Shown: positions 3,446-14,551 of the stretch, one piece after another | Position numbering within the stretch: the first letter of the stretch is position 1 | Layout: every line of letters begins with the position of its first letter | Notes under the pieces: generated by a model | Databases searched by the model: none | What the model was told of the DNA's origin: nothing | The model's input: only the letters and a program-made list of their open reading frames with translations | Virus record (IMG/VR): IMGVR_UViG_2698536454_000007 | DNA from: a virus | Lineage: Duplodnaviria > Heunggongvirae > Uroviricota > Caudoviricetes | Length of the DNA stretch: 38,464 nt | Reading direction: 5' to 3' (one strand) | Program-made: the position numbers and the translations under genes

Positions 3446-4391
3446 ACGCCCACTGGTTATAAACACACAGCTTGCGATGAAGATTGGCTTAAATGAAGCC
3501 ATTGTGTTGCAGCAGTTGCATTACTGGTTGAGAGATACCAGTTCCGGTATGGAATGTGACGGGGTTCGCTGGATTTATAACACAACAGAACAATGGCTGG
3601 AACAGTTCCCGTTCTGGTCAGAGTCAACGTTAAAACGCGCATTTGCAAGTCTGAAAACGCTGGGGCTTTTGCGTTGCGAAAAGCTCAACAAATCAAAGCG
3701 TGATATGACTAATTTTTACACGATTAATTACGAGAGTGAGCTTTTAGATGGTGGCAAAGTGAGCGAATCCATCAGGTCAAAATGCGCCGCTCCATCGGGT
3801 CAAAATGACACGATGGAAGAGGTCAAAATGGCACGCTCCATTGGTTCAAAACGACCCAATGTCATCGGGTCAAAATGGCCTGATGATCTTACAGAGAATA
3901 CAACAGAGATTACTACAGAGAATAAAAACACTTCTCGTCCGGAAGCTTCGCAACCGGACCCGCAGACGGCTGAACAGGATTTTTTAACCCGACACCCTGA
4001 CGCGGTTGTGTTCAGTGCGAAAAAACGCCAGTGGGGAAGTCAGGAAGATTTGGCGTGCGCACAGTGGATCTGGGGACGAATCGTGAGTCTTTACGAGCAG
4101 GCTGCCAGCGATGATGGCGAGATCACGCGACCGAAAGAACCAAACTGGACCGCATGGGCCAATGACGTGCGCACAATGCGGATGCTGGATGGCAGAAGCC
4201 ACAGACAAATTTGCGAAATGTTTGGTCGGGTACAGCGAGATCCATTCTGGGTAAAAAACATCATGAGCCCGTCAAAGCTTCGCGAAAAATGGGACGACCT
4301 GGTCATCCGCCTGGGGCGTTCACCTGTACAGTGTTGTGTGAATCATATTTCTGAACCGGATACCGAAATTCCGCCTGGTTTCAGGGGATAA
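3426..4391 (+). CDS. Replication initiator (replisome-organizer / O-like protein) with the origin iterons inside the gene
   Basis: N-terminal winged-helix-like region (LVINTQLAMKIGLNEAIVLQQLHYWL...) typical of phage replisome organizers; five direct repeats lie within its linker-coding region. The start is ambiguous (ATG 3426 versus ATG 3384 or TTG 3372). Confidence 0.75.
   Translation: MSLLFAERPLVINTQLAMKIGLNEAIVLQQLHYWLRDTSSGMECDGVRWIYNTTEQWLEQFPFWSESTLKRAFASLKTLGLLRCEKLNKSKRDMTNFYTINYESELLDGGKVSESIRSKCAAPSGQNDTMEEVKMARSIGSKRPNVIGSKWPDDLTENTTEITTENKNTSRPEASQPDPQTAEQDFLTRHPDAVVFSAKKRQWGSQEDLACAQWIWGRIVSLYEQAASDDGEITRPKEPNWTAWANDVRTMRMLDGRSHRQICEMFGRVQRDPFWVKNIMSPSKLREKWDDLVIRLGRSPVQCCVNHISEPDTEIPPGFRG
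3768..3877. repeat. Putative replication origin: five ~23-bp iterons (core GGTCAAAATG) followed by an A-rich repeated segment
   Basis: Direct repeats TCCATCAGGTCAAAATG (3768), TCCATCGGGTCAAAATG (3791), AGAGGTCAAAATG (3818), TCCATTGGTTCAAAACG (3837), GTCATCGGGTCAAAATG (3861), then ACAGAGAATA repeats at 3891-3925. Lambda likewise has its ori iterons inside O. Confidence 0.7.
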
Positions 4392-4431
4392 GTGGTGATT
4401 TTAGGGCATAAAGTAATGTTCAGGAGGACTT

Positions 4432-4839
4432 ATGGCAAAAGTATTTACACAGGAAGAGCGGGAAAAAATTAAAGGACAGGTGGTGGAACTCGTGCGCCAG
4501 AGCGGTCGTGAGACGTTACGGCAACTGGAAGCTAAAACAGGTGCGACAAGATATCTGATGAGCGTTCTTGCCAGAGAGCTGGTTGCCAGTGGTGATGTAT
4601 ATCACTCTGGCTATGGGGTGTTCCCGTCAGAACGGGCTCGTAAGGACTGGCAAAACGCCCGCAAAAAACTCTCGAGGGCAAAGGTGAAGAAACCTGTTGT
4701 GGTTGATCCGGGCCTTATCTGGACATTACCCGACGGAGAAATACGCCGCTACGACAGGCGTATGAACATAATCTGTCGCGAGTGCCGGAAGAGCGAAGTT
4801 ATGCAGCGTGTATTGGCGTTCTATCAGGGATATGCCTAG
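4432..4839 (+). CDS. Hypothetical protein (135 aa), basic, possibly DNA-binding
   Basis: Strong AGGAGG Shine-Dalgarno 6 nt before ATG 4432; base composition like the phage backbone; no family recognised. Confidence 0.6.
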   Translation: MAKVFTQEEREKIKGQVVELVRQSGRETLRQLEAKTGATRYLMSVLARELVASGDVYHSGYGVFPSERARKDWQNARKKLSRAKVKKPVVVDPGLIWTLPDGEIRRYDRRMNIICRECRKSEVMQRVLAFYQGYA

Positions 4840-5207
4840 AATTGTCACAGGTAATGAAATTAAAGAGTATTGGTTCGGATATGAATTGACATTTTCGCGG
4901 CACAGAGCTAAAAATAGCCTACTTGTTGGTTTTGTGTGAAAAGCAGACATTTTGAGGCTCAGGATTTGTTATCAAATAAGACCAATACTTATCTATATTA
5001 ATACACATTAAATACTGTGCAATACATTATTACATTTTATTAGATAAGCGATATTTAGGGAAAAGAAAAGTCATAGAAAACAGGCCGCTATTTGTTGTTG
5101 GATTTTATAGGCTATATCTAGATTATCTTGCCACTGCGGTCTCTGTTTACCTAACAGCTTGGGCTTCTTTGCATGCAAGTTTGTAATAACAAGAGTAATC
5201 AAACGGA

Positions 5208-6239
5208 ATGTCTATTAATCCTAAACTTAAGCGTATCGCGCGACGCTATCCAGCGTTATTCCAATATGAGTCCCCCTATATGGCAAGAAAATTAATAATA
5301 TTCGGCAACGGTCTCGGTATGGCTTTAGATCCTGCTCACTTCTCCTTAGACAGAGCGTTGGAAGAAATTTGGCATCGCCCCAATTTTTTAAAAGATATCC
5401 ACAAGCAACTTATCGAGCGTTGTCTTCAGCGGCAAGGTCCACCAGAAGGAGAACATGAGTTGGATACCCTTCACCAGGCTGTCACATATTGTAAAGCTCT
5501 TGCTCAAATTGGAGAGGGGAACGTGCATTGGCTTACTGAAGATGGACTAAACTTCCCCAAAATTACCGCCACTTATATTCACAAAGTTGCAACCAGGTTG
5601 CATAATTACGATAAAGGTTTGCCACAAAGATTCGAAAATGCGCTTGTGGAGTTTGTAAAGAACACACACTCACATATCGCGACATTAAACTATGACAAAT
5701 TATTATACAATTCATTCATAGATAATGATATATTCAACGGGTATGATGGGGTTTTAGTTGATGGGATGCTAAGCCACGGATTTTCCTCTGCAGCGCTCGA
5801 ACGGAAATACAATCGTAGGTTTGGTTATTATTTGCACTTGCATGGTTCACCACTATTTATTAATCAGCATGAAAATGTTTTAAAACTTTCACGCTCACAA
5901 CTTACTCTTGACATAGATGAACCTAGTGAGCATATAGTGTTAACTCATATAAAAAGAAAACCGTCAGTTATAGCAGCATCTAATGTTCTTTCTACGTACT
6001 GGGATTATTTGCAGTTTGCATTATTTGAATCAGAAGAAATAATATTGTTTGGTTACTCTGGTCTCGATATTCACCTTAACCTGCTTATTCGACCTTACCT
6101 AACCTCTAAGCCTTTAAGAGTAATTGAGTGGAGCGGTGCTGGTGAACAAAACGCTCGTGAGATATATTGGAAAAACCAGTTGAGACGGGAAGTTACTGTA
6201 ATTAGGTTGGATAACATCACTGATTTTATTGATTGGTAG
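5208..6239 (+). CDS. Standalone SIR2-like (sirtuin-fold, predicted NAD-binding) protein, 343 aa; candidate anti-phage effector
   Basis: Motifs in sirtuin order: Gly-rich IIFGNGLGMA (res ~31-40), TLNYDKLL (compare sirtuin TQNIDxL), HLHGS (catalytic-His HG motif), ILFGYSGLD (GYS/GTS motif). The gene and its flanks are visibly AT-rich relative to neighbours. Weak Shine-Dalgarno (ACGGA). Confidence 0.65.
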   Translation: MSINPKLKRIARRYPALFQYESPYMARKLIIFGNGLGMALDPAHFSLDRALEEIWHRPNFLKDIHKQLIERCLQRQGPPEGEHELDTLHQAVTYCKALAQIGEGNVHWLTEDGLNFPKITATYIHKVATRLHNYDKGLPQRFENALVEFVKNTHSHIATLNYDKLLYNSFIDNDIFNGYDGVLVDGMLSHGFSSAALERKYNRRFGYYLHLHGSPLFINQHENVLKLSRSQLTLDIDEPSEHIVLTHIKRKPSVIAASNVLSTYWDYLQFALFESEEIILFGYSGLDIHLNLLIRPYLTSKPLRVIEWSGAGEQNAREIYWKNQLRREVTVIRLDNITDFIDW

Positions 6240-6553
6240 CGCAATGCGAAGTTAAAGAGGCAGCCTCATATTTATCAGAGCTGGTGTACGTCCAATACAG
6301 GAGGTTATCGTGCTGGTTCTCAAATGCGCGCTGGCTATTGCGGCTGTAGTGGCAATTTATTGTCTTGCTATTGTTCTTATGGATCGCCTTTCTGATTGAT
6401 TTTATATTGGCGAGGTGACGGGAGTTAAGTAGAATTGCTGCGGGTGCTTGAGGCTGTCTGCCTCGGGCATGCCACCGTAAGGCAGACAGAGAAAAGCCCC
6501 AGTTAACATTACGCGTCCTGCAAGACGCTTAACATTAATCTGAGGCCCAATCT

Positions 6554-6766
6554 ATGCTTCACAAACGTAGGTTAGCCTCTTACGCGCCGAAAGGCAAGGA
6601 GAAGCAGGCTATGAAGCAGCAAAAGGCGATGTTAATCGCCCTGATCGTCATCTGTTTAACCGTCATAGTGACGGCACTGGTAACGAGGAAAGACCTCTGC
6701 GAGGTACGAATCCGAACCGGCCAGACGGAGGTCGCTGTCTTCACAGCTTACGAACCTGAGGAGTAA
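6554..6766 (+). CDS. mok: Mok-like reading frame, an in-frame N-terminal extension of hok (70 aa)
   Basis: ATG at 6554 with GAGG upstream; same frame and stop as hok, as in chromosomal mok/hok loci. Confidence 0.5.
   Translation: MLHKRRLASYAPKGKEKQAMKQQKAMLIALIVICLTVIVTALVTRKDLCEVRIRTGQTEVAVFTAYEPEE
6611..6766 (+). CDS. hok: Hok/Gef-family type I toxin (51 aa), HokD/RelF-like
   Basis: Product MKQQKAMLIALIVICLTVIVTALVTRKDLCEVRIRTGQTEVAVFTAYEPEE: a single transmembrane helix plus the conserved Hok C-terminal region; AGGAG upstream; fold-back stem (CTGTCTGCC...GGCAGACAG) in the 5' leader at 6457-6490. Confidence 0.85.
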   Translation: MKQQKAMLIALIVICLTVIVTALVTRKDLCEVRIRTGQTEVAVFTAYEPEE

Positions 6767-8642: not shown

Positions 8643-9002
8643 ATGCGTATAGAGTTTGTTTTGCCTTACCCGCCGACGGTGAACACCTACTGGCGACGTC
8701 GTGGCAGCACATATTTTGTGTCAAAAGCCGGTGAGCGTTATCGCCGGGATGTGGCACTTATTGTTCGCCAGCAGCGGCTGAAATTAAACCTGTCCGGAAG
8801 GCTGGCGATAAAGATTATTGCAGAGCCACCGGATAAGCGCCGCCGCGACCTGGACAATATCCTGAAGGCACCACTGGATGCGCTTACGCATGCCGGACTA
8901 CTTATAGACGACGAGCAGTTTGATGAAATCAATATTGTGCGCGGTCAGCTCGTTTCTGGTGGGCGGCTGGGCGTGAAGATTTACAAAATTGAAAGTGAGT
9001 GA
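8643..9002 (+). CDS. rusA: Holliday junction resolvase RusA
   Basis: 119 aa; motifs PPTVNTYW and RRRDLDNILKAPLDALT are characteristic of RusA; AAGAGG Shine-Dalgarno. Confidence 0.85.
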   Translation: MRIEFVLPYPPTVNTYWRRRGSTYFVSKAGERYRRDVALIVRQQRLKLNLSGRLAIKIIAEPPDKRRRDLDNILKAPLDALTHAGLLIDDEQFDEINIVRGQLVSGGRLGVKIYKIESE

Positions 9003-9010
9003 GCATAAAT

Positions 9011-9565
9011 ATGATATACCCGGAAATTACAGGCAAAAGCGGTGAGCATTTACGCCTGAAAACGCTGGAAAGTGTCTGGATCCAGGGGAAACTGCGTATG
9101 TGGGGGCGTTGGTCGTATATTGGCGACGGTAAGACGGGAAATATGTTCAACCAATTACTGATCTCTAAAAAGCTGACAAAAACGGCAATTAACGAGGCGC
9201 TCCGGAGGATGAAAAAAGCGGGTCTGGACAAACCTGAACTTGAGGCTTTTTTGCGGGATATGATCAACGGCAATCAAAAAAGCTGGCTGGCACATTGTAC
9301 CGATTCAGAGGCGTTAATAATCGACAGGGTTATTGGTGAAGTACTGGCAGGTTATCCCGGGCTGCTCAATGTTCTGAGTCAGCGTTATGTGGGGCGGGGG
9401 ATGACTAAGCGCAAAATGGCTGAACTGCTGAATGATGCACATCCGGAATGGAGTTTAAGAACCTGTGAAAGACGCATTGAGCATTGGCTAAAGGTGGCAG
9501 AATTTATTTTGTACAAACCAATGGTTATGGCTTTTGGTATAGAGAAAAAAGTTATTGCTTTTTGA
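9011..9565 (+). CDS. Late-gene antiterminator Q-like protein
   Basis: Position (after rusA, immediately before an intrinsic terminator and the late-operon cargo and lysis genes) is the canonical Q slot; family assignment is by synteny. Alternative GTG start at 8999. Confidence 0.55.
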   Translation: MIYPEITGKSGEHLRLKTLESVWIQGKLRMWGRWSYIGDGKTGNMFNQLLISKKLTKTAINEALRRMKKAGLDKPELEAFLRDMINGNQKSWLAHCTDSEALIIDRVIGEVLAGYPGLLNVLSQRYVGRGMTKRKMAELLNDAHPEWSLRTCERRIEHWLKVAEFILYKPMVMAFGIEKKVIAF

Positions 9566-9642
9566 CGTAAAAACTGCTTCAATTCCGGTAAGCTTCGCAA
9601 AGCTGTACCGCGAGGCGAATAGCAGACATGGACATTTGAAAG

Positions 9643-9667
9643 AGCCCGCTTTTTGCGGGTTTTTTTA
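9643..9667 (+). terminator. Intrinsic terminator downstream of Q (tR'-like); the late promoter presumably lies in 9566-9640
   Basis: GCCCGC-TTTTT-GCGGG hairpin followed by a run of 7 T. The promoter itself is not resolved. Confidence 0.65.
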
Positions 9668-9987
9668 TGACTGAAAAACGGCACGGGGCGTTAAACGCGC
9701 TGGTGGTTGCTAATACCGGTCTTTCAACTTGCTGGCTTTTTCGACAAGAGTTATTGGTATGTCACGTTAACCGGAAAATGGAAAAAGGCATGCTAAAACA
9801 GCAGGATATGACCGAAACCGCCAGAGTGGTGTTTAATGAATTAAGCGTCACCGAACCGGCGACCGCCGGGGAAATTGCGCAGAACACTTATCTTTCACGC
9901 GAACGCTGCCAGTTAATACTGACCCAGCTTGTTATGGCGGGTCTGGCAGATTATCAGTTCGGTTGTTACAGACGCCTTCCTCAGTGA
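9667..9987 (+). CDS. Small putative winged-helix DNA-binding protein; start codon uncertain (9667, 9778 or 9790)
   Basis: C-terminal part ATAGEIAQNTYLSRERCQLILTQLVMAGLA looks like an HTH; none of the candidate starts has a good Shine-Dalgarno. Confidence 0.35.
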   Translation: MTEKRHGALNALVVANTGLSTCWLFRQELLVCHVNRKMEKGMLKQQDMTETARVVFNELSVTEPATAGEIAQNTYLSRERCQLILTQLVMAGLADYQFGCYRRLPQ

Positions 9988-10137
9988 AGGCTTTTTTATT
10001 TGTGGTAATGGGCGGCTGGTGGGTGTTAGCGGCACCTGCCAGCCATCTGCTCATGCGTTGGGGTCACAAGCAAACCTCAGGCCCATCTGCTTTGCGCAAA
10101 AGCGGTATGAGCCTATCAGAGAAGTGCTTATTGATCT

Positions 10138-11196
10138 ATGGCTAATACTGTAAAAATATCCAGTTGTGAGTTAATCAACGCTGATTGCCTGGAATTTATC
10201 CAGACCTTACCGGAAAACTCTGTCGATCTGATAGTCACAGACCCGCCATACTTTAAAGTGAAGCCCGAGGGCTGGGATAACCAGTGGAAGGGCGACGATG
10301 ATTACCTGAAGTGGCTGGACCAGTGTCTGGCGCAGTTCTGGCGGGTGCTGAAACCTGCCGGAAGTCTTTACCTGTTCTGTGGTCATCGCCTGGCATCTGA
10401 TATCGAAATCATGATGCGTGAACGCTTCAGTGTGCTGAACCATATTATCTGGGCGAAGCCGTCCGGACGCTGGAACGGATGCAACAAGGAAAGCCTGCGG
10501 GCGTATTTCCCCGCCACAGAGCGCATTCTGTTCGCGGAACATTATCAGGGGCCGTATCGTCCGAAAGATGCCGGGTATGCGGCGAAGGGCAGTGCACTGA
10601 AACAGCATGTGATGGCCCCGCTGATTTCTTACTTTCGTGATGCGCGCGCGGCCCTGGGGATAACGGCAAAACAGATTGCAGATGCCACAGGAAAGAAAAA
10701 CATGGTGTCGCACTGGTTCAGTGCCAGTCAGTGGCAGCTACCGAACGAAAGCGATTATCTGAAATTACAGTCGCTGTTTGCCCGGGTGGCAGAAGAGAAA
10801 CATCAGCGGGGAGAACTGGAAAAGTCCCATTACCAACTGGTCAGCACATACAGTGAGCTGAACCGGCAGTATATGGAACTGCTGAGTGAATATAAGCATC
10901 TGCGGCGGTATTTTGGCGTGACGGTGCAGGTGCCGTATACCGATGTGTGGACGCATAAACCGGTGCAGTTCTATCCCGGGAAACATCCGTGCGAAAAACC
11001 GGCAGAAATGCTGCAGCAGATAATCAGCGCTAGCAGTCGTCCGGGTGACCTGATTGCAGATTTTTTCATGGGGTCGGGTTCGACAGTGAAAGCGGCACTG
11101 GCGCTCGGGCGTCGTGCAATTGGCGTTGAGCTGGAGACTGAACGTTTTGAGCAGACGGTTCGGGAAGTACAGGATTTAGTCAGCCAGAACGGATGA
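10138..11196 (+). CDS. Orphan DNA N6-adenine methyltransferase, beta class (DPPY before FxGxG)
   Basis: Motif IV VTDPPY near the N-terminus and motif I FFMGSGST near the C-terminus; no endonuclease gene adjacent. Confidence 0.85.
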   Translation: MANTVKISSCELINADCLEFIQTLPENSVDLIVTDPPYFKVKPEGWDNQWKGDDDYLKWLDQCLAQFWRVLKPAGSLYLFCGHRLASDIEIMMRERFSVLNHIIWAKPSGRWNGCNKESLRAYFPATERILFAEHYQGPYRPKDAGYAAKGSALKQHVMAPLISYFRDARAALGITAKQIADATGKKNMVSHWFSASQWQLPNESDYLKLQSLFARVAEEKHQRGELEKSHYQLVSTYSELNRQYMELLSEYKHLRRYFGVTVQVPYTDVWTHKPVQFYPGKHPCEKPAEMLQQIISASSRPGDLIADFFMGSGSTVKAALALGRRAIGVELETERFEQTVREVQDLVSQNG

Positions 11197-11236
11197 TATT
11201 GAAGAATTAATTACGCGTCGTTATTATGCGGCTCCC

Positions 11237-11312
11237 GGCCCTTTAGCTCAGTGGTGAGAGCGAGCGACTCATAATCGCCAGGTCGCTGGTTCAAATCCAG
11301 CAAGGGCCACCA
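11237..11312 (+). tRNA. ileZ: tRNA with CAU anticodon (Met or lysidine-modified Ile2; ileZ-like)
   Basis: Cloverleaf: acceptor GGCCCTT/AAGGGCC, D-arm AGCTCAGTGGTGAGAGC, anticodon loop CTCATAA, T-arm GGTTCAAATCC, 3' CCA. Confidence 0.85.
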
Positions 11313-11319
11313 TCACATA

Positions 11320-11396
11320 CCGCTATTAGCTCATCAGGAAAGAGCGCCAGCCTTCGAAGCTGGCTGCGCGGGGTTCAAGTCCCCGATGGCGGTCCA
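11320..11396 (+). tRNA. argN: tRNA-Arg (anticodon UCG)
   Basis: Acceptor CCGCTAT/ATGGCGG, anticodon stem-loop GCCAG-CCTTCGAA-CTGGC, T-arm GGTTCAAGTCC, CCA end. Confidence 0.85.
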
Positions 11397-11409
11397 TTAT
11401 CTGCATCAT

Positions 11410-11486
11410 GCGTTGTTAGCTCAGCCGGACAGAGCAATTGCCTTCTAAGCAATCGGTCACTGGTTCGAATCCAGTACAACGCGCCA
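11410..11486 (+). tRNA. argO: tRNA-Arg (anticodon UCU, reads AGA)
   Basis: Acceptor GCGTTGT/ACAACGC, anticodon loop CCTTCTAAG, T-arm GGTTCGAATCC, CCA end. Confidence 0.85.
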
Positions 11487-11502
11487 CACTTATTTTCCCT
11501 GG

Positions 11503-11529
11503 CTCGCTTTTGCGGGCTTTTTTTTAAAT
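11503..11529 (+). terminator. Terminator after the tRNA cluster
   Basis: CTCGC-TTTT-GCGGG hairpin followed by CTTTTTTTTT. Confidence 0.6.
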
Positions 11530-11974
11530 GTCTCACAATTCAGACGGTTGACAGTTGTCTGTTTTGCGGGGAGTTTGTTAAAAGAAACTGGCATGGTGAA
11601 TCCCCCTGTGCGGAGGGGCAATCAGCGAGTAGGTATATGGGATAATCGCGGATTCAGGTGCTGGTACTGAATTCACCGGGAGGCACCCGGCACCATGCAA
11701 TGGCACATAGCGCCACTCTCCAGCCCCTCTCCGGAGGGGCTTTCTTATGGACAAAAAAAGCCCGCGCTGGGAGACGCGGGCGGCAAGGAATAAACAACAA
11801 AACGTGAAGTAATATTTCAGCTGGCGAATAATATCCGACAGTAATCACTCTGCGCAATAGCGCGGCCTTTTTCGTATTGCGGGCTGTTGTCTCTCTTCTG
11901 CCATTGTCCTGTAACTTCCGGACTTCAGCCCGCTCCTCATTTTACTCACAATATTATCCCGGCCGGGAGGATTC

Positions 11975-13837
11975 ATGGCATTTAAACACTATGATGTTGT
12001 CAGGGCGGTATCGCCGTCAGACCTTGCTGATGCACTTGCTCAAAAAATTCGTGAAGGATGGCAACCATACGGCGGGCCGTTTTCTTCGTATACGGATGAT
12101 GGCGCAGCACTTATTCAGGCGATTGTCGCAGAAGGTGATGTGGTCGTCAGTGGTGCAACTGAGCCGGAGTGGTACTACGTCATCGTACTGGCCGGGCAGT
12201 CTAATGCCATGGCTTACGGTGAAGGGCTTCCGCTTCCGGATTCATACGATGCGCCCCATCCGCGCATTAAGCAACTGGCCCGTCGTAACACAGTGACTCC
12301 CGGTGGTGAAGTATGCGTATTTAACGACATCATTCCTGCTGACCATTGTCTGCATGATGTTCAGGATATGAGTACGATTAATCATCCCCGGGCTGACCTG
12401 AGCAAAGGGCAGTACGGCTGTGTCGGACAGGGCTTACATATTGCCAAAAAACTGCTTCCGTATATCCCTAATAATGCGGGGATCCTGCTGGTACCATGCT
12501 GTCGTGGTGGTTCGGCATTCACCCAGGGCACGGAGGGGACATTCAGCGAGTCCACGGGGGCCAGTCAGGATTCGGCTCGCTGGGGAGTGGGTAAGCCGTT
12601 ATATCAGGATCTGCTTTTCCGCACGAAGGCAGCATTGCAGAAAAACCCGAAAAACGTTTTGCTGGCGATATGCTGGATGCAGGGGGAATTCGATATGACG
12701 AATGCCAGTTACGCCCAGCAGCCAGCAGCATTTCTTGCAATGGTACAGCAGTTCCGTGCTGACCTTGCCGGGCTGGCGGCGCAGTGTCACGGTGGAAGTC
12801 CGGCATCAGTCCCCTGGATTTGTGGCGACACGACATACGCGTGGAAACAAGAACACGGTACGCAATATGAAGTGGTATATGGTGCATATAAAGGTAAAGA
12901 ATCCCAGCAGATTTATTTTGTTCCCTTTATGACCGATGGTAGCGGAGTTAATACACCGACAAACAACCCGTCAGAAGATCCTGATATTGTCGGGTCTGGT
13001 TATTACGGTTCGGCATCCCGAACGAACAAAAACTGGGTATCATCAAATCGCCCGACGCATTTCAGCTCATGGGCGCGTCGTGGCATTATTCCCGATCGTA
13101 TGGCAACCGCTATTCTGAACGCAGCCGGGCGCACCTCAGCCTTCATTAGTGGTAAGGCACCGGAAATCAAACCCTCGCCCGGCGGCGACACGCCATCGGG
13201 GCCGTCTGAAGATGCATCCATACGCACAATCTCCCTGTTGCCGACAGCCGGAGACGCTGCTGCGCAGGGCTGGAGCATTAAGAATGGCGGAATTCAGTTG
13301 TCAGATGGTGTATTTAAGATCACCAAGCAGAGCAATAAAGCCTGGTCCCTGACGCGCCCGGTGGATGACGCAGTCTCCCTGCTGACACGGGGTGGCAGAC
13401 TGAGCTGTAAGTTTCGCCTGTCAGGCGCACTGACCAACAACCAGTTCGGTCTGGGAATTTATCTGTATACCGATGTAGCGTTACCTGACGTCGTGGCGAT
13501 GACCGGGACTGGTAACCCGTTCCTGATGTCGTTCTTCACCCAGACCACAGACGGCAAACTGAATCTGATGCATCACAAGAAAGCAGGAAACACAAAGTTG
13601 GGCGAGTTCGGGAATTACAGTAACGACTGGCAGACGCTGGAGCTGGTGTTCACCGCCGGCAGTGCCACGGTTGCTCCGAAACTGAATGGAGTGGCTGGCC
13701 CGGCATTCCAGGTCATAAAAGACAGTCTGACAGTGGGACTAAATGCACTGACGCTGACGGATATTACCAAAAATGCAACGTATGGCGTTGAGATAGAAAG
13801 TCTGGTGCTGGAGATAAATGCACCGGCATCATCATAA
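11975..13837 (+). CDS. nanS: Prophage NanS-p-type sialate O-acetylesterase (YjhS family), 620 aa
   Basis: SGNH/SASA signature [14 protein letters not shown] after an N-terminal DUF1737-like region; GGGAGG Shine-Dalgarno; occupies the slot just downstream of stxAB in Stx phages. Confidence 0.85.
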
Positions 13838-13986
13838 AAAGTGAGCCAGTCAAATGGAAAGTATCGTTAAACTCACCGGTAGTGTCAGTGGGTCGTCTGA
13901 GACGCCTGCATGAGTTATCAGAGCCATCAGTACTTAACTGGTGGCTTTTTTATTGTTGTCAGCTTCCGGATAACGGGAGACGGGGT

Positions 13987-14202
13987 ATGTACCAGATGGA
14001 AAAAATCACAACAGGTGTGTCATACACCACGTCAGCGGTGGGAACGGGCTACTGGTTCCTGCAGTTGCTGGACAGGGTTTCCCCGTCTCAGTGGGCGGCA
14101 ATAGGCGTGCTGGGGAGTCTGCTGTTTGGGCTGCTGACATATCTGACTAACCTGTATTTCAAAATCAGAGAGGACCGTCGTAAGGCGGCACGGGGAGAGT
14201 AA
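13987..14202 (+). CDS. S: Class II pinholin, S21-type, with dual-start motif (Met1 and Met4)
   Basis: [71 protein letters not shown], 71 aa; GGGAGACGGGG Shine-Dalgarno. Confidence 0.85.
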
Positions 14203-14206
14203 TTCA

Positions 14207-14551
14207 ATGACTCAAAACTATGAACTGATTGTGAAAGGGATCCGCAATTTTGAGAATAAAGTTACGGTAACTTTAGCGTTACGGGACAAAAAACGCTTTG
14301 ACGGTGAAATTTTTGACCTGGACATCTCGCTGGACCGTGTTGAAGGTGCCGCGCTGGAGTTTTATGAGGCAGCAGCCAGAAGGAGCATCAGACAGGTCTT
14401 CCTGGATGTTGCTGCCGGGTTATGTGAAGGGGATGAGCAGTCACCGGAAAAGCGCCCCATAATTTTAGAGGCGCAGGGTGTGTGGATAACCTACAAAGGA
14501 AAACTGCCGGGAAGAATTACTGGTTCACTGAAGACTCCGCCGAAATGGTAA
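14207..14551 (+). CDS. YdfR-like protein (114 aa) inserted between holin and endolysin
   Basis: GGGGAGAG Shine-Dalgarno 7 nt before ATG, 4 nt after the holin stop; position matches ydfR between essQ and rrrQ in Qin. Confidence 0.6.
   Translation: MTQNYELIVKGIRNFENKVTVTLALRDKKRFDGEIFDLDISLDRVEGAALEFYEAAARRSIRQVFLDVAAGLCEGDEQSPEKRPIILEAQGVWITYKGKLPGRITGSLKTPPKW

Follow-up and report, generated by a model that had tools for sequence, protein, structure and literature searches.

What occupies the 488 bp that separate a tRNA cluster from a nanS-p gene (11487-11974) in a phage whose gene order is that of a Stx phage with the toxin operon absent? A sequence-only reading of the window (the whole stretch of viral DNA that was analysed, 38,464 nucleotides) had taken this interval for the slot in which Stx phages carry stxAB, and had proposed that it is an empty cargo site, a deletion scar, or the seat of a small RNA. 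Our analysis indicates that the interval is very probably an "sRNA dyad": two convergent and independently promoted sRNA genes framed by terminators, at the moron site of the lambdoid late region. In the following we examine the stx junction, the RNA encoded on each strand, and the alternatives that the evidence on each of them brings up.

The interval and the stx junction

The interval lies among the following features:

8999-9565: Q-like gene (DUF1133/Phage_antitermQ)
10138-11196: DNA methylase gene
11199-11227: promoter-like site ahead of the tRNAs
11237-11486: three tRNA genes, Met-CAT, Arg-TCG and Arg-TCT
11501-11518 (stem), T run to 11525, plus strand: intrinsic terminator of the tRNA (ileZ/argN/argO-type) operon, GGCTCGC-TTTT-GCGGGCT, from the terminator scan
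11525/11529, no strand: stx2AB junction of Stx2 phages, with only AAA (11526-11528) in the window, from blastn and direct reading
11965-11977, plus strand: ribosome-binding site GGGAGG and ATG of nanS-p, read from the sequence
11975-13837: ORF of the nanS-p type, 620 aa, with DUF1737, SASA (sialate O-acetylesterase) and DUF6645 (Pfam)

The Stx-phage gene order without stx was borne out, with the small correction that the Q-like gene and the tRNAs are separated by a DNA methylase gene and a short ORF. The methylase-containing arrangement is also found in the Stx2a phage Stx2_14040 (hereafter L001), in the order methylase, three tRNAs, stx2A, stx2B and yjhS/nanS-p. In the RefSeq annotation of an identical sequence the first tRNA (Met-CAT) is a tRNA-Ile of the ileZ type, and the promoter that drives the tRNAs has been mapped in Sakai Sp5 by dRNA-seq (PMC7547250). 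As for coding capacity, the ORF list contains nothing longer than 67 aa inside 11487-11974, in agreement with the earlier claim that the interval has no convincing ORF. A protein-coding reading was dismissed, since only short overlapping ORFs of at most 67 aa are present. The sole RefSeq feature in the slot, a partial pseudo-ORF on the minus strand that runs antisense to the STnc100 region described below, is spurious.

The interval had also been described as dense in hairpins, and this proved correct. A consensus scan of 3 kb returned seven terminator-like sites, compared to 3.4 +/- 1.7 in shuffled sequences, and five of the seven (two of the five overlapping) are located inside the 488-bp slot. 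Both hairpins that the sequence-only reading had singled out are real. The plus-strand stem occupies 11722-11741 with a tail to 11748 (it had been placed at about 11729-11755), and the minus-strand hairpin with its T run occupies 11781-11753 (placed at 11756-11790). With ends at 11748 and 11753, respectively, these two terminators are convergent and abutting. Two plus-strand sites were absent from the earlier list, namely the terminator of the tRNA operon, which is kept upstream of stx2A in the Stx2 phages L001, L003 and L006, and a hairpin at 11850-11872.

Alignment to Stx prophages, which had been suggested as a check, located the stx2AB boundary in the window. According to blastn, window positions 9655-11524 equal positions 796-2665 of L001, and window positions 11529-13118 equal positions 4001-5656; the extra DNA in L001 (2666-4000, 1335 bp) consists of stx2A and stx2B, and both flanks of the cassette are contiguous in the window. 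Direct reading showed that the cassette follows immediately on the T tract that closes the tRNA-operon terminator and that its far end abuts TGT(G/C)TCACAATTCAG, and the junction sequences of the window contain no stx remnant. Stx1 and Stx2 phages have the remaining ~445 bp of the interval as well, on the downstream side of stxB, and this part is therefore conserved with or without stx. A full-length STnc100 copy was found between stxB and nanS-p in every Stx phage examined, with scores of 159 bits in L001, 177 in the Stx1 phage, 186 in L003 and 208 in Sakai Sp5. Hence the interval as a whole is not the stx slot, and that claim holds for a single point at its left edge.

The view that the locus is an empty cargo site or a scar of stxAB loss, i.e. 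a non-functional spacer with incidental hairpins, can point to the gene order shared with Stx phages and to the stx2AB flanks that meet in the window with only three nucleotides between them. However, the junction is confined to that one point, the other ~445 bp are kept downstream of stxB, and no stx-derived sequence is left. Moreover, the interval scores high for an RNA family that shows covariation, and it matches probes that detect RNAs from both strands. We regard the empty-site or scar view as highly improbable. Among the three options put forward initially, it is the small RNA that stands, on the strength of the STnc100 match and the probe matches presented in the next sections. The empty site does not, and neither does the scar, no stx remnant being present.

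A stx-less layout like that of the window (tRNAs, a 489-bp slot, a nanS-p homologue) exists in the Sakai prophage Sp4, and the two slots are identical at 484 of 489 positions. The whole slot was detected, at a coverage of at least 80%, in 977 genomes. The sequence-only reading had stated that it would have to be abandoned if the interval were ordinary spacer, conserved in stx-negative and stx-positive phages alike and giving no transcript. The interval is indeed conserved in both kinds of phage, but it is not ordinary spacer, because both strands are transcribed in the 99%-identical locus, as documented by published northerns and Hfq crosslinking. In Sp5, "convergent sRNA genes", namely EcOnc27 and EcOnc02 (AsxR), were described on the 3' side of PR' at the moron site; for Sp3, Sp4, Sp9, Sp10, Sp11, Sp15 and Sp17 the authors noted "a similar gene organization", so that the dyad is on record for at least eight lambdoid prophages of Sakai (Tree et al., 2014, PMC4104026). 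A review names them dyads of Hfq-binding sRNAs and calls the reason for the arrangement unclear (PMC7873438). In the window, too, the sRNA genes are convergent, their terminators abut, and they are situated between PR' and the lysis genes, in the layout of Sp5 and Sp4. The instance is already known: dyads of this kind have been on record since 2014, STnc100 is in Rfam, and there is nothing new in the window's copy. Annotation of the slot should read two sRNA genes with terminators, not an empty stx site.

The plus-strand RNA and the STnc100 family

The covariance-model scan that had been proposed for the interval was performed with all Rfam families. It returned STnc100 (RF02076) over its full length (model positions 1-206) with 139.2 bits and an E-value of 1e-31, the gathering cut-off of the family being 47 bits. 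The parts of this RNA are:

11562-11752, plus strand: STnc100-family sRNA of the EcOnc05 type (relatives EcOnc27/sRNA103, EcOnc06 and PasD), Rfam RF02076
11576-11584, plus strand: predicted extended -10, TG-t-TAAAAG, inferred from the family consensus
11591-11598/11691-11698, plus strand: P1
11603-11607/11614-11618, plus strand: P2
11621-11626 with 11660-11665, plus strand: loop-to-junction pairing
11625-11649, plus strand: variable arm
11650-11657/11667-11674, plus strand: helix b
11676-11680/11686-11690, plus strand: P5
11699-11721, plus strand: linker
11722-11741 (stem AGCCCCTC-TCCG-GAGGGGCT), tail TTCTTAT 11742-11748, plus strand: intrinsic terminator of the STnc100-type RNA, from the terminator scan

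The terminator at 11722-11748 corresponds to the 3' end of the Rfam match, and when 11590-11750 is folded for minimum energy the architecture of the family emerges, with P1, P2, the variable arm, helix b, P5, a linker hairpin and the terminator. Fold energy alone is unconvincing, because the z-score of this stretch against shuffled sequences is only -1.9. The published probes provide a direct connection to detected RNAs: the EcOnc05 northern probe is the exact reverse complement of 11620-11654, within the STnc100 match, and the probe for EcOnc06 fits 11633-11667 with a single mismatch. EcOnc05 is encoded on the plus strand of Sp4 and was detected as a northern band of ~222 nt and as an Hfq CRAC peak (Tree et al., 2014, PMC4104026). 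This peak maps to 11623-11731 on the plus strand, provided that Sakai coordinates are not shifted at Sp4, a premise with which the probe positions agree. Another copy, STnc100_4, is northern-positive in EDL933. The copies published as EcOnc05, EcOnc06 and EcOnc27 resemble the window in helices, terminator and site (after the tRNAs or stx, and before the sialate esterase gene). EcOnc05 is identical to the window's copy in the probe region, the central arm and the 3' linker, whereas EcOnc27, which is the same as sRNA103 and follows stx2B in Sp5, differs in the central arm and the 3' linker. EcOnc06 is the STnc100 copy of Sp17, and PasD1 and PasD2 of EPEC E2348/69 are related to the E. coli copies of STnc100. 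Judged by its sequence, the predicted plus-strand RNA agrees with STnc100 in every respect that can be tested, and is essentially the published EcOnc05.

To place the 5' end, we relied on the family consensus. In 106 unique upstream regions a -10-like TAAAAT stands at -15 to -10 from the GGTG anchor, and this fixed distance places the start at the base of P1. RpoD ChIP-exo data from Salmonella LT2, which show peaks at the STnc100 copies, agree with this placement (PMC10794520). In the window the predicted start would fall at ~11590-11592 and give a plus-strand RNA of ~158 nt, a size that disagrees with the ~222 nt of the EcOnc05 northern. The TTGACA at 11548-11553 was considered as the -35 of this promoter and rejected: it stands ~25 nt away from the conserved -10, and the sequence 16-18 nt downstream of it offers no usable -10.

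The family extends far beyond phages of E. coli. Exact copies of its 22-nt core, CACCGGGAGGCACCCGGCACCA, were found in 110 stretches of species-representative genomes from many Enterobacterales genera, including Kosakonia, Enterobacter, Klebsiella, Raoultella, Citrobacter, Buttiauxella, Trabulsiella, Pantoea and Erwinia, and 13 of the 18 core loci that were scanned score above the Rfam STnc100 cut-off. An RNAalifold consensus of 16 diverse members contains 27 pairs, and compensatory changes occur in 11 of these. When the structure includes the loop-to-junction pairing, 93.3% of the cells of these 16 members are paired, compared to 80.9% in shuffled data (none of 500 shuffles reached the observed value); the covariation score is 0.377 compared to 0.144, in helix b six of the eight pairs are changed on both sides, and with the partners slid only 41-47% of the cells are paired. 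The pairing forms a pseudoknot between the segment just after P2 and the loop of helix b, and is represented by 46 distinct sequence pairs among 52 sequences. In an alignment-free test with these 52 sequences, cognate partners had on average 6.5 contiguous pairs versus 4.5 for non-cognate partners, and the observed mean was reached in 0 of 2000 permutations. On a MAFFT alignment, which is not structure-aware, the pseudoknot was 70% paired and four of its five pairs showed compensatory changes. It is missing from the consensus-structure line printed with the Rfam model (covariance models cannot represent pseudoknots), and we found no mention of it in eight papers citing STnc100. The covariation supports a loop-to-junction pseudoknot in the 5' domain of STnc100, conserved across Enterobacterales.

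The genomic context of 118 non-redundant copies is mixed: 48 have a terminator and no nearby ORF, 15 a terminator and then an ORF, 24 an ORF at <=200 nt without a terminator, and 31 neither. The commonest downstream ORF, at 17 loci, encodes a KdgM-family porin (PF06178, 242 bits), and some of the porin loci carry a weak terminator ~30 nt before the ribosome-binding site. A convergent terminator accompanies only seven of the 118 copies, nearly all of the E. coli phage type. For this reason, the dyad was rejected as a general property of STnc100 and is a trait of the E. coli phage copies, not of the family. Because a KdgM/NanC-family porin is the most frequent ORF after STnc100 in other genera, and the window has nanS-p, a link between STnc100 and sialic-acid genes was considered. 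This was dropped: the porin shares no more than 22% identity with K-12 NanC, and no STnc100 match was found in the K-12 nanC upstream region at E<=1.

Copies at the head of an mRNA bring up the chief alternative, namely that the plus-strand element acts mainly in cis. The pseudoknotted 5' domain would then be a sensor or protein-binding part of a riboswitch-like attenuating leader, which, in the lysogen, sets the passage of transcription from its own promoter into nanS-p, past the hairpins at 11722-11748 and 11850-11872, and the "sRNA" would be a terminated by-product. Near-invariant loops, covarying helices and a pseudoknot maintained across many genera, next to a 3' linker that is free to vary, are what such a leader might be expected to show, and the domain is found at the very 5' end of the transcript. 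The context counts can be read both ways: 24 of the 118 copies precede an ORF without a terminator and 15 precede one after a terminator, including the 17 KdgM-family porins, but 48 have a terminator and no ORF nearby. The same is true of nanS-p, whose basal expression in lysogens would suit a leader, while its rise with mitomycin C is that of the Q-dependent late genes. Relatives of the RNA accumulate as discrete, Hfq-bound species with trans partners, there is no known ligand or binding protein, and no conserved antiterminator pairing was found. An alternative pairing of P2 with the terminator, as in a riboswitch, was rejected, as the resemblance of P2 to the terminator stem, the shared GGAGGGGC, is not conserved beyond the E. 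coli copies. The cis-leader reading appears improbable to us, and we favor an autonomous sRNA gene as the plus-strand member of the dyad.

The convergent minus-strand RNA

On the right-hand side of the slot, three features are relevant:

11753-11946, 5' end uncertain, minus strand: Hfq-binding RNA of the EcOnc08/EcOnc21/EcOnc42 type, from the probe match and the terminator
11781-11760 (stem GCCCGCG-TCTCCCAG-CGCGGGC), T7 (U7) at 11759-11753, minus strand: intrinsic terminator of the convergent minus-strand sRNA, from the terminator scan
11850-11872 (stem 11850-11865), plus strand: second plus-strand terminator-like hairpin, CTGCGC-AATA-GCGCGG, CC and T5, from the terminator scan

The 35-nt probe used for EcOnc08, EcOnc21 and EcOnc42, AATAATATCCGACAGTAATCACTCTGCGCAATAGC, equals the plus strand of the window at 11827-11861 without a mismatch, and therefore its target is a minus-strand RNA. 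EcOnc08 and EcOnc21 are encoded on the minus strand of Sp4 and each gave a northern band of ~271 nt, and EcOnc42 is the EcOnc21 homologue of the Stx1 phage Sp15 (Tree et al., 2014, PMC4104026). Compared to these, the window has the same terminator in the same orientation to STnc100 and nanS-p, and no difference was seen. By this sequence match, the minus-strand hairpin is the predicted 3' end of a published Hfq-bound antisense RNA. The sequence-only reading had considered the hairpin odd, with no minus-strand gene nearby; it is no longer odd, because a minus-strand sRNA gene of the EcOnc08/21/42 type is present and ends there. In position and orientation the terminator at 11753-11781 is equal to the AsxR terminator in Sakai Sp5, and it is kept in Sp4, one Stx1 phage and two Stx2 phages. 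Of 5426 complete E. coli genomes, 992 carry the minus-strand element (11753-11872), a single genome having as many as six copies, and elements of the window type have no RefSeq annotation or Rfam family.

Predicted minus-strand starts at ~11821, ~11804, ~11946 and ~11984 would give RNAs of 69, 52, 194 and 232 nt, respectively, and none of these fits the published ~271-nt band. The start at ~11821 belongs to an AsxR-homologous promoter, with the -35 TTGCGC at 11857-11852 and the -10 TATTAT at 11833-11828. The stem of the 11850-11872 hairpin, which is nearly invariant across six aligned phages, also holds the -35 of this minus-strand promoter. Under the same premise of unshifted Sakai coordinates at Sp4, again consistent with the probe positions, the EcOnc08 Hfq peak maps to 11755-11827 and the EcOnc21 peak to 11833-11918, both on the minus strand. 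The predicted 69-nt RNA (11821 to 11753) coincides with the mapped EcOnc08 peak.

The coincidence raises the question of whether the minus-strand element could be an anti-sRNA of the AsxR/AgvB kind, i.e. a 51-60-nt sponge for a core-genome sRNA. In Sp5 (L006), Rfam models place AsxR at 4182-4130 on the minus strand, where it abuts and converges on STnc100 at 3923-4128 on the plus strand, which is the position and orientation of the window's element. In that prophage the distance from TTGCGC to the downstream -10, beyond which Rfam places the AsxR 5' end, is 18 nt. The conserved hairpin with the -35 TTGCGC is common to both loci, the -10 being TAAAAT in Sp5 and a good TATTAT, 18 nt downstream, in the window. 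It is this promoter that predicts the 69-nt RNA, and one Sp4 Hfq peak maps to exactly that stretch. However, the hallmark of AsxR and AgvB is a conserved ~42-nt 3' region, which EcOnc03 shares, preceded by a variable 14-18-nt 5' seed, with a length of 51-60 nt (Tree et al., 2014). The 3' module (AGTATCTCATGC..TTGCCCGAACCCA.TCGGGC) is absent from the window, and the window's own 3' region, TTATTCCTTGCCGCCCGCGTCTCCCAGCGCGGGCTTTTTTT, does not align to it. Covariance models of AsxR (RF02703) and AgvB (RF02702) gave no match at E<=10 in a 281-nt search of 11700-11980, and none at E<=1 in 9000-14500, whereas the positive control, Sakai Sp5, gave 88.1 bits for AsxR. At ~271 nt, the northern band published for this type also exceeds the 51-60 nt of the class. 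With no covariance-model match and the 3' module missing, membership in the AsxR/AgvB class was rejected, and we consider it distinctly improbable that the element is such a sponge. The likeness that remains is one of setting: AsxR, AgvB and EcOnc03 share with the window's RNA the position convergent to STnc100, the -35 hexamer, Hfq binding (for the window's RNA, via the published locus) and a GC-rich terminator with a C-rich loop. AsxR and AgvB differ from it by their short length and a different RNA body, compared to the ~271 nt reported for the window type.

One may also combine the cis and the short-RNA ideas. In such a proposal the STnc100 5' domain (P1, P2, the pseudoknot, and P5 with the invariant GGGAGGCACCC) would be a ligand- or protein-binding attenuator acting in cis, on nanS-p here and on KdgM porins and other ORFs elsewhere, and/or the minus strand would also yield an RNA of ~52-69 nt from the AsxR-homologous promoter. 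This seems improbable to us. If true, the short minus-strand RNA would add to the anti-sRNA class a third type of RNA body, so far uncharacterised.

Proposed working of the dyad and comparison with known systems

The dyad is organized as follows. Read along the plus strand, the tRNA-operon terminator is followed by the stx2AB point and then by the STnc100-family RNA, which has a predicted sigma-70 promoter of its own and in which a compact, pseudoknotted 5' domain precedes a linker of variable sequence and the intrinsic terminator. Four bases past that terminator comes the terminator of the EcOnc08/21/42-type RNA, predicted to be transcribed from the nanS-p side, and then the second plus-strand terminator and the nanS-p leader. 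In a lysogen of the window's strain both RNAs would be made and would bind Hfq, to judge from their relatives, and most likely both would act in trans on host or prophage mRNAs. Among these relatives, overexpression of EcOnc27/sRNA103 raises the fimZ and espA transcripts and PasD has RIL-seq targets; STnc100 has been found in vesicles. For EcOnc05 and EcOnc08/21/42 themselves, the literature contains no published target or phenotype. The anatomy of the locus suggests that a longer minus-strand form would be antisense to the nanS-p leader. It also suggests that the three terminators may keep transcription that is not Q-modified out of nanS-p and the lysis genes, while in lytic growth Q-modified polymerase would read through all of them. 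Expression of nanS-p is known to be induced by mitomycin C, like that of stx, and to have a basal level in lysogens.

In Stx phages the dyad adjoins stx, and a 2025 study that applied machine learning to O157 ranked sequence variants of the plus-strand RNA among the best predictors of haemolytic uraemic syndrome. STnc100 is one of the most frequently annotated sRNA families. The covariation of the pseudoknot and the frequent position of the RNA at the head of mRNAs offer new handles on its function.

Small RNAs made by lysogens from the late region are not without precedent. StxS and the lambda 6S RNA, the PR'-tR' transcripts, are likewise produced there and end at an intrinsic terminator that is overridden by Q-modified polymerase. 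They differ in that they start at PR', directly after Q, whereas the RNAs of the slot have predicted promoters of their own; in the window, the PR'-tR' unit would sit at ~9570-9991, 1.5 kb upstream of the slot RNAs. A closer parallel is provided by the morons of lambdoid phages, units of promoter, gene and terminator inserted between late genes (Juhala et al., 2000). The slot, between PR' and the lysis genes, is a classical site for them, the sRNA genes are likewise autonomous units running from promoter to terminator, and stx2AB adjoins them in relatives. The difference resides in the cargo, which is a protein gene in the lambdoid morons and a non-coding RNA in the slot.

A proposed pseudoknot in the STnc100 5' domain and other features of the plus-strand RNA

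Comparison of the STnc100 loci family-wide (L008-L117) revealed covariation that supports a pseudoknot of the loop-to-junction type within the 5' domain of the RNA, which in the window pairs 11621-11626 with 11660-11665. The partners are the segment directly 3' of hairpin P2 and the loop of the helix immediately preceding the conserved core. Across the family these segments occur as 46 distinct complementary sequence pairs, and the observed complementarity was reached in none of 2000 permutations. The pairing is absent from the structure line of the Rfam STnc100 model, and no mention of it was found in the papers examined that cite STnc100.

A further likeness concerns P2 (11603-11618) and the hairpin that terminates the plus-strand RNA (11722-11741). 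In both stems the 5' strand is C-rich and the 3' strand reads GGAGGGGC, so cross-pairing is possible in the window copy. The resemblance is not kept in Sp5, the stx2-carrying prophage of E. coli O157 Sakai, nor in copies beyond E. coli; it was therefore taken as coincidental and rejected as a meaningful pairing.

The published northern sizes of the plus-strand RNA are ~222 nt in Sp4, the Sakai prophage with a slot near-identical to that of the window, and 235/247 nt in Sp5. In both prophages alike, these sizes exceed the prediction from the family promoter by ~65 nt. The longer RNA would have its 5' end at the extreme start of the block common to stx-positive and stx-negative phages (within window 11527-11592), where the conserved CACAAT (11534-11539) might serve as another -10. 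Alternatively, the same excess in length could stem from processing of read-through transcripts.

Annotation and genomic settings of STnc100 loci

RefSeq/PGAP annotates neither sRNA in the L005 genome, which has a slot matching that of the window at 100% identity. The sole feature is a partial pseudo "hypothetical protein" on the minus strand at L005 3595-3720 (window ~11581-11706), which runs antisense to the STnc100 region. A comparable spurious ORF (b70) is present in the Morioka Stx1 phage record.

In 17 species-representative genomes, from genera that include Kosakonia, Klebsiella, Enterobacter, Citrobacter and Raoultella, an STnc100 copy precedes a KdgM-family porin gene of the same orientation at a distance of 65-220 nt (L023, L025-L027, L033, L035, L040, L049, L054, L061, L069, L074-L076, L080, L082, L102). 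Several of these loci have a weak terminator-like hairpin ~30 nt 5' of the ribosome-binding site, and the arrangement of STnc100 and hairpin ahead of the porin gene looks like a leader or attenuator. A link of STnc100 to nanC was considered and found unsupported, the KdgM-family porin being only 22% identical to NanC; STnc100 was looked for upstream of K-12 nanC and gave no match there at E up to 1.

At two loci outside E. coli, L085 (Raoultella, ~6515-6560) and L062 (a Klebsiella plasmid), an A-run and GCCCGC hairpin are convergent to the STnc100 copy. The hairpins resemble the minus-strand terminator of the window, with changes in both stem strands that preserve pairing. These two loci suggest that the convergent sRNA dyad may extend beyond Escherichia, at low frequency.

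Neighbouring candidate non-coding sites in the window

Four further sites lie outside the slot:

13920-13948, plus strand: strong terminator-like hairpin of 12 pairs with a T run, within the nanS-p to holin spacer (13838-13990)
9592-9665: downstream of the Q-like gene, weak isrK-like Rfam match that scores under the cut-off at 19.8 bits
9974-9991, plus strand: terminator-like site, downstream of the Q-like gene
11199-11227: promoter-like site (TTGAAG, 17 nt, TATTAT), immediately 5' of the first tRNA

The nanS-p/holin spacer matched no Rfam family at E up to 1. It is the same site as that of the PasA/PasC sRNA genes in EPEC/EHEC prophages, where the order is esterase, PasA, holin, lysozyme. The interval 9570-9991 has the position expected of a PR'-tR' short transcript of the StxS or lambda 6S type; at an identical locus, RefSeq annotates a 65-aa hypothetical protein. 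Finally, the promoter-like site at 11199-11227 agrees with dRNA-seq of Sakai Sp5, which mapped a separate promoter for the tRNAs (PMC7547250).
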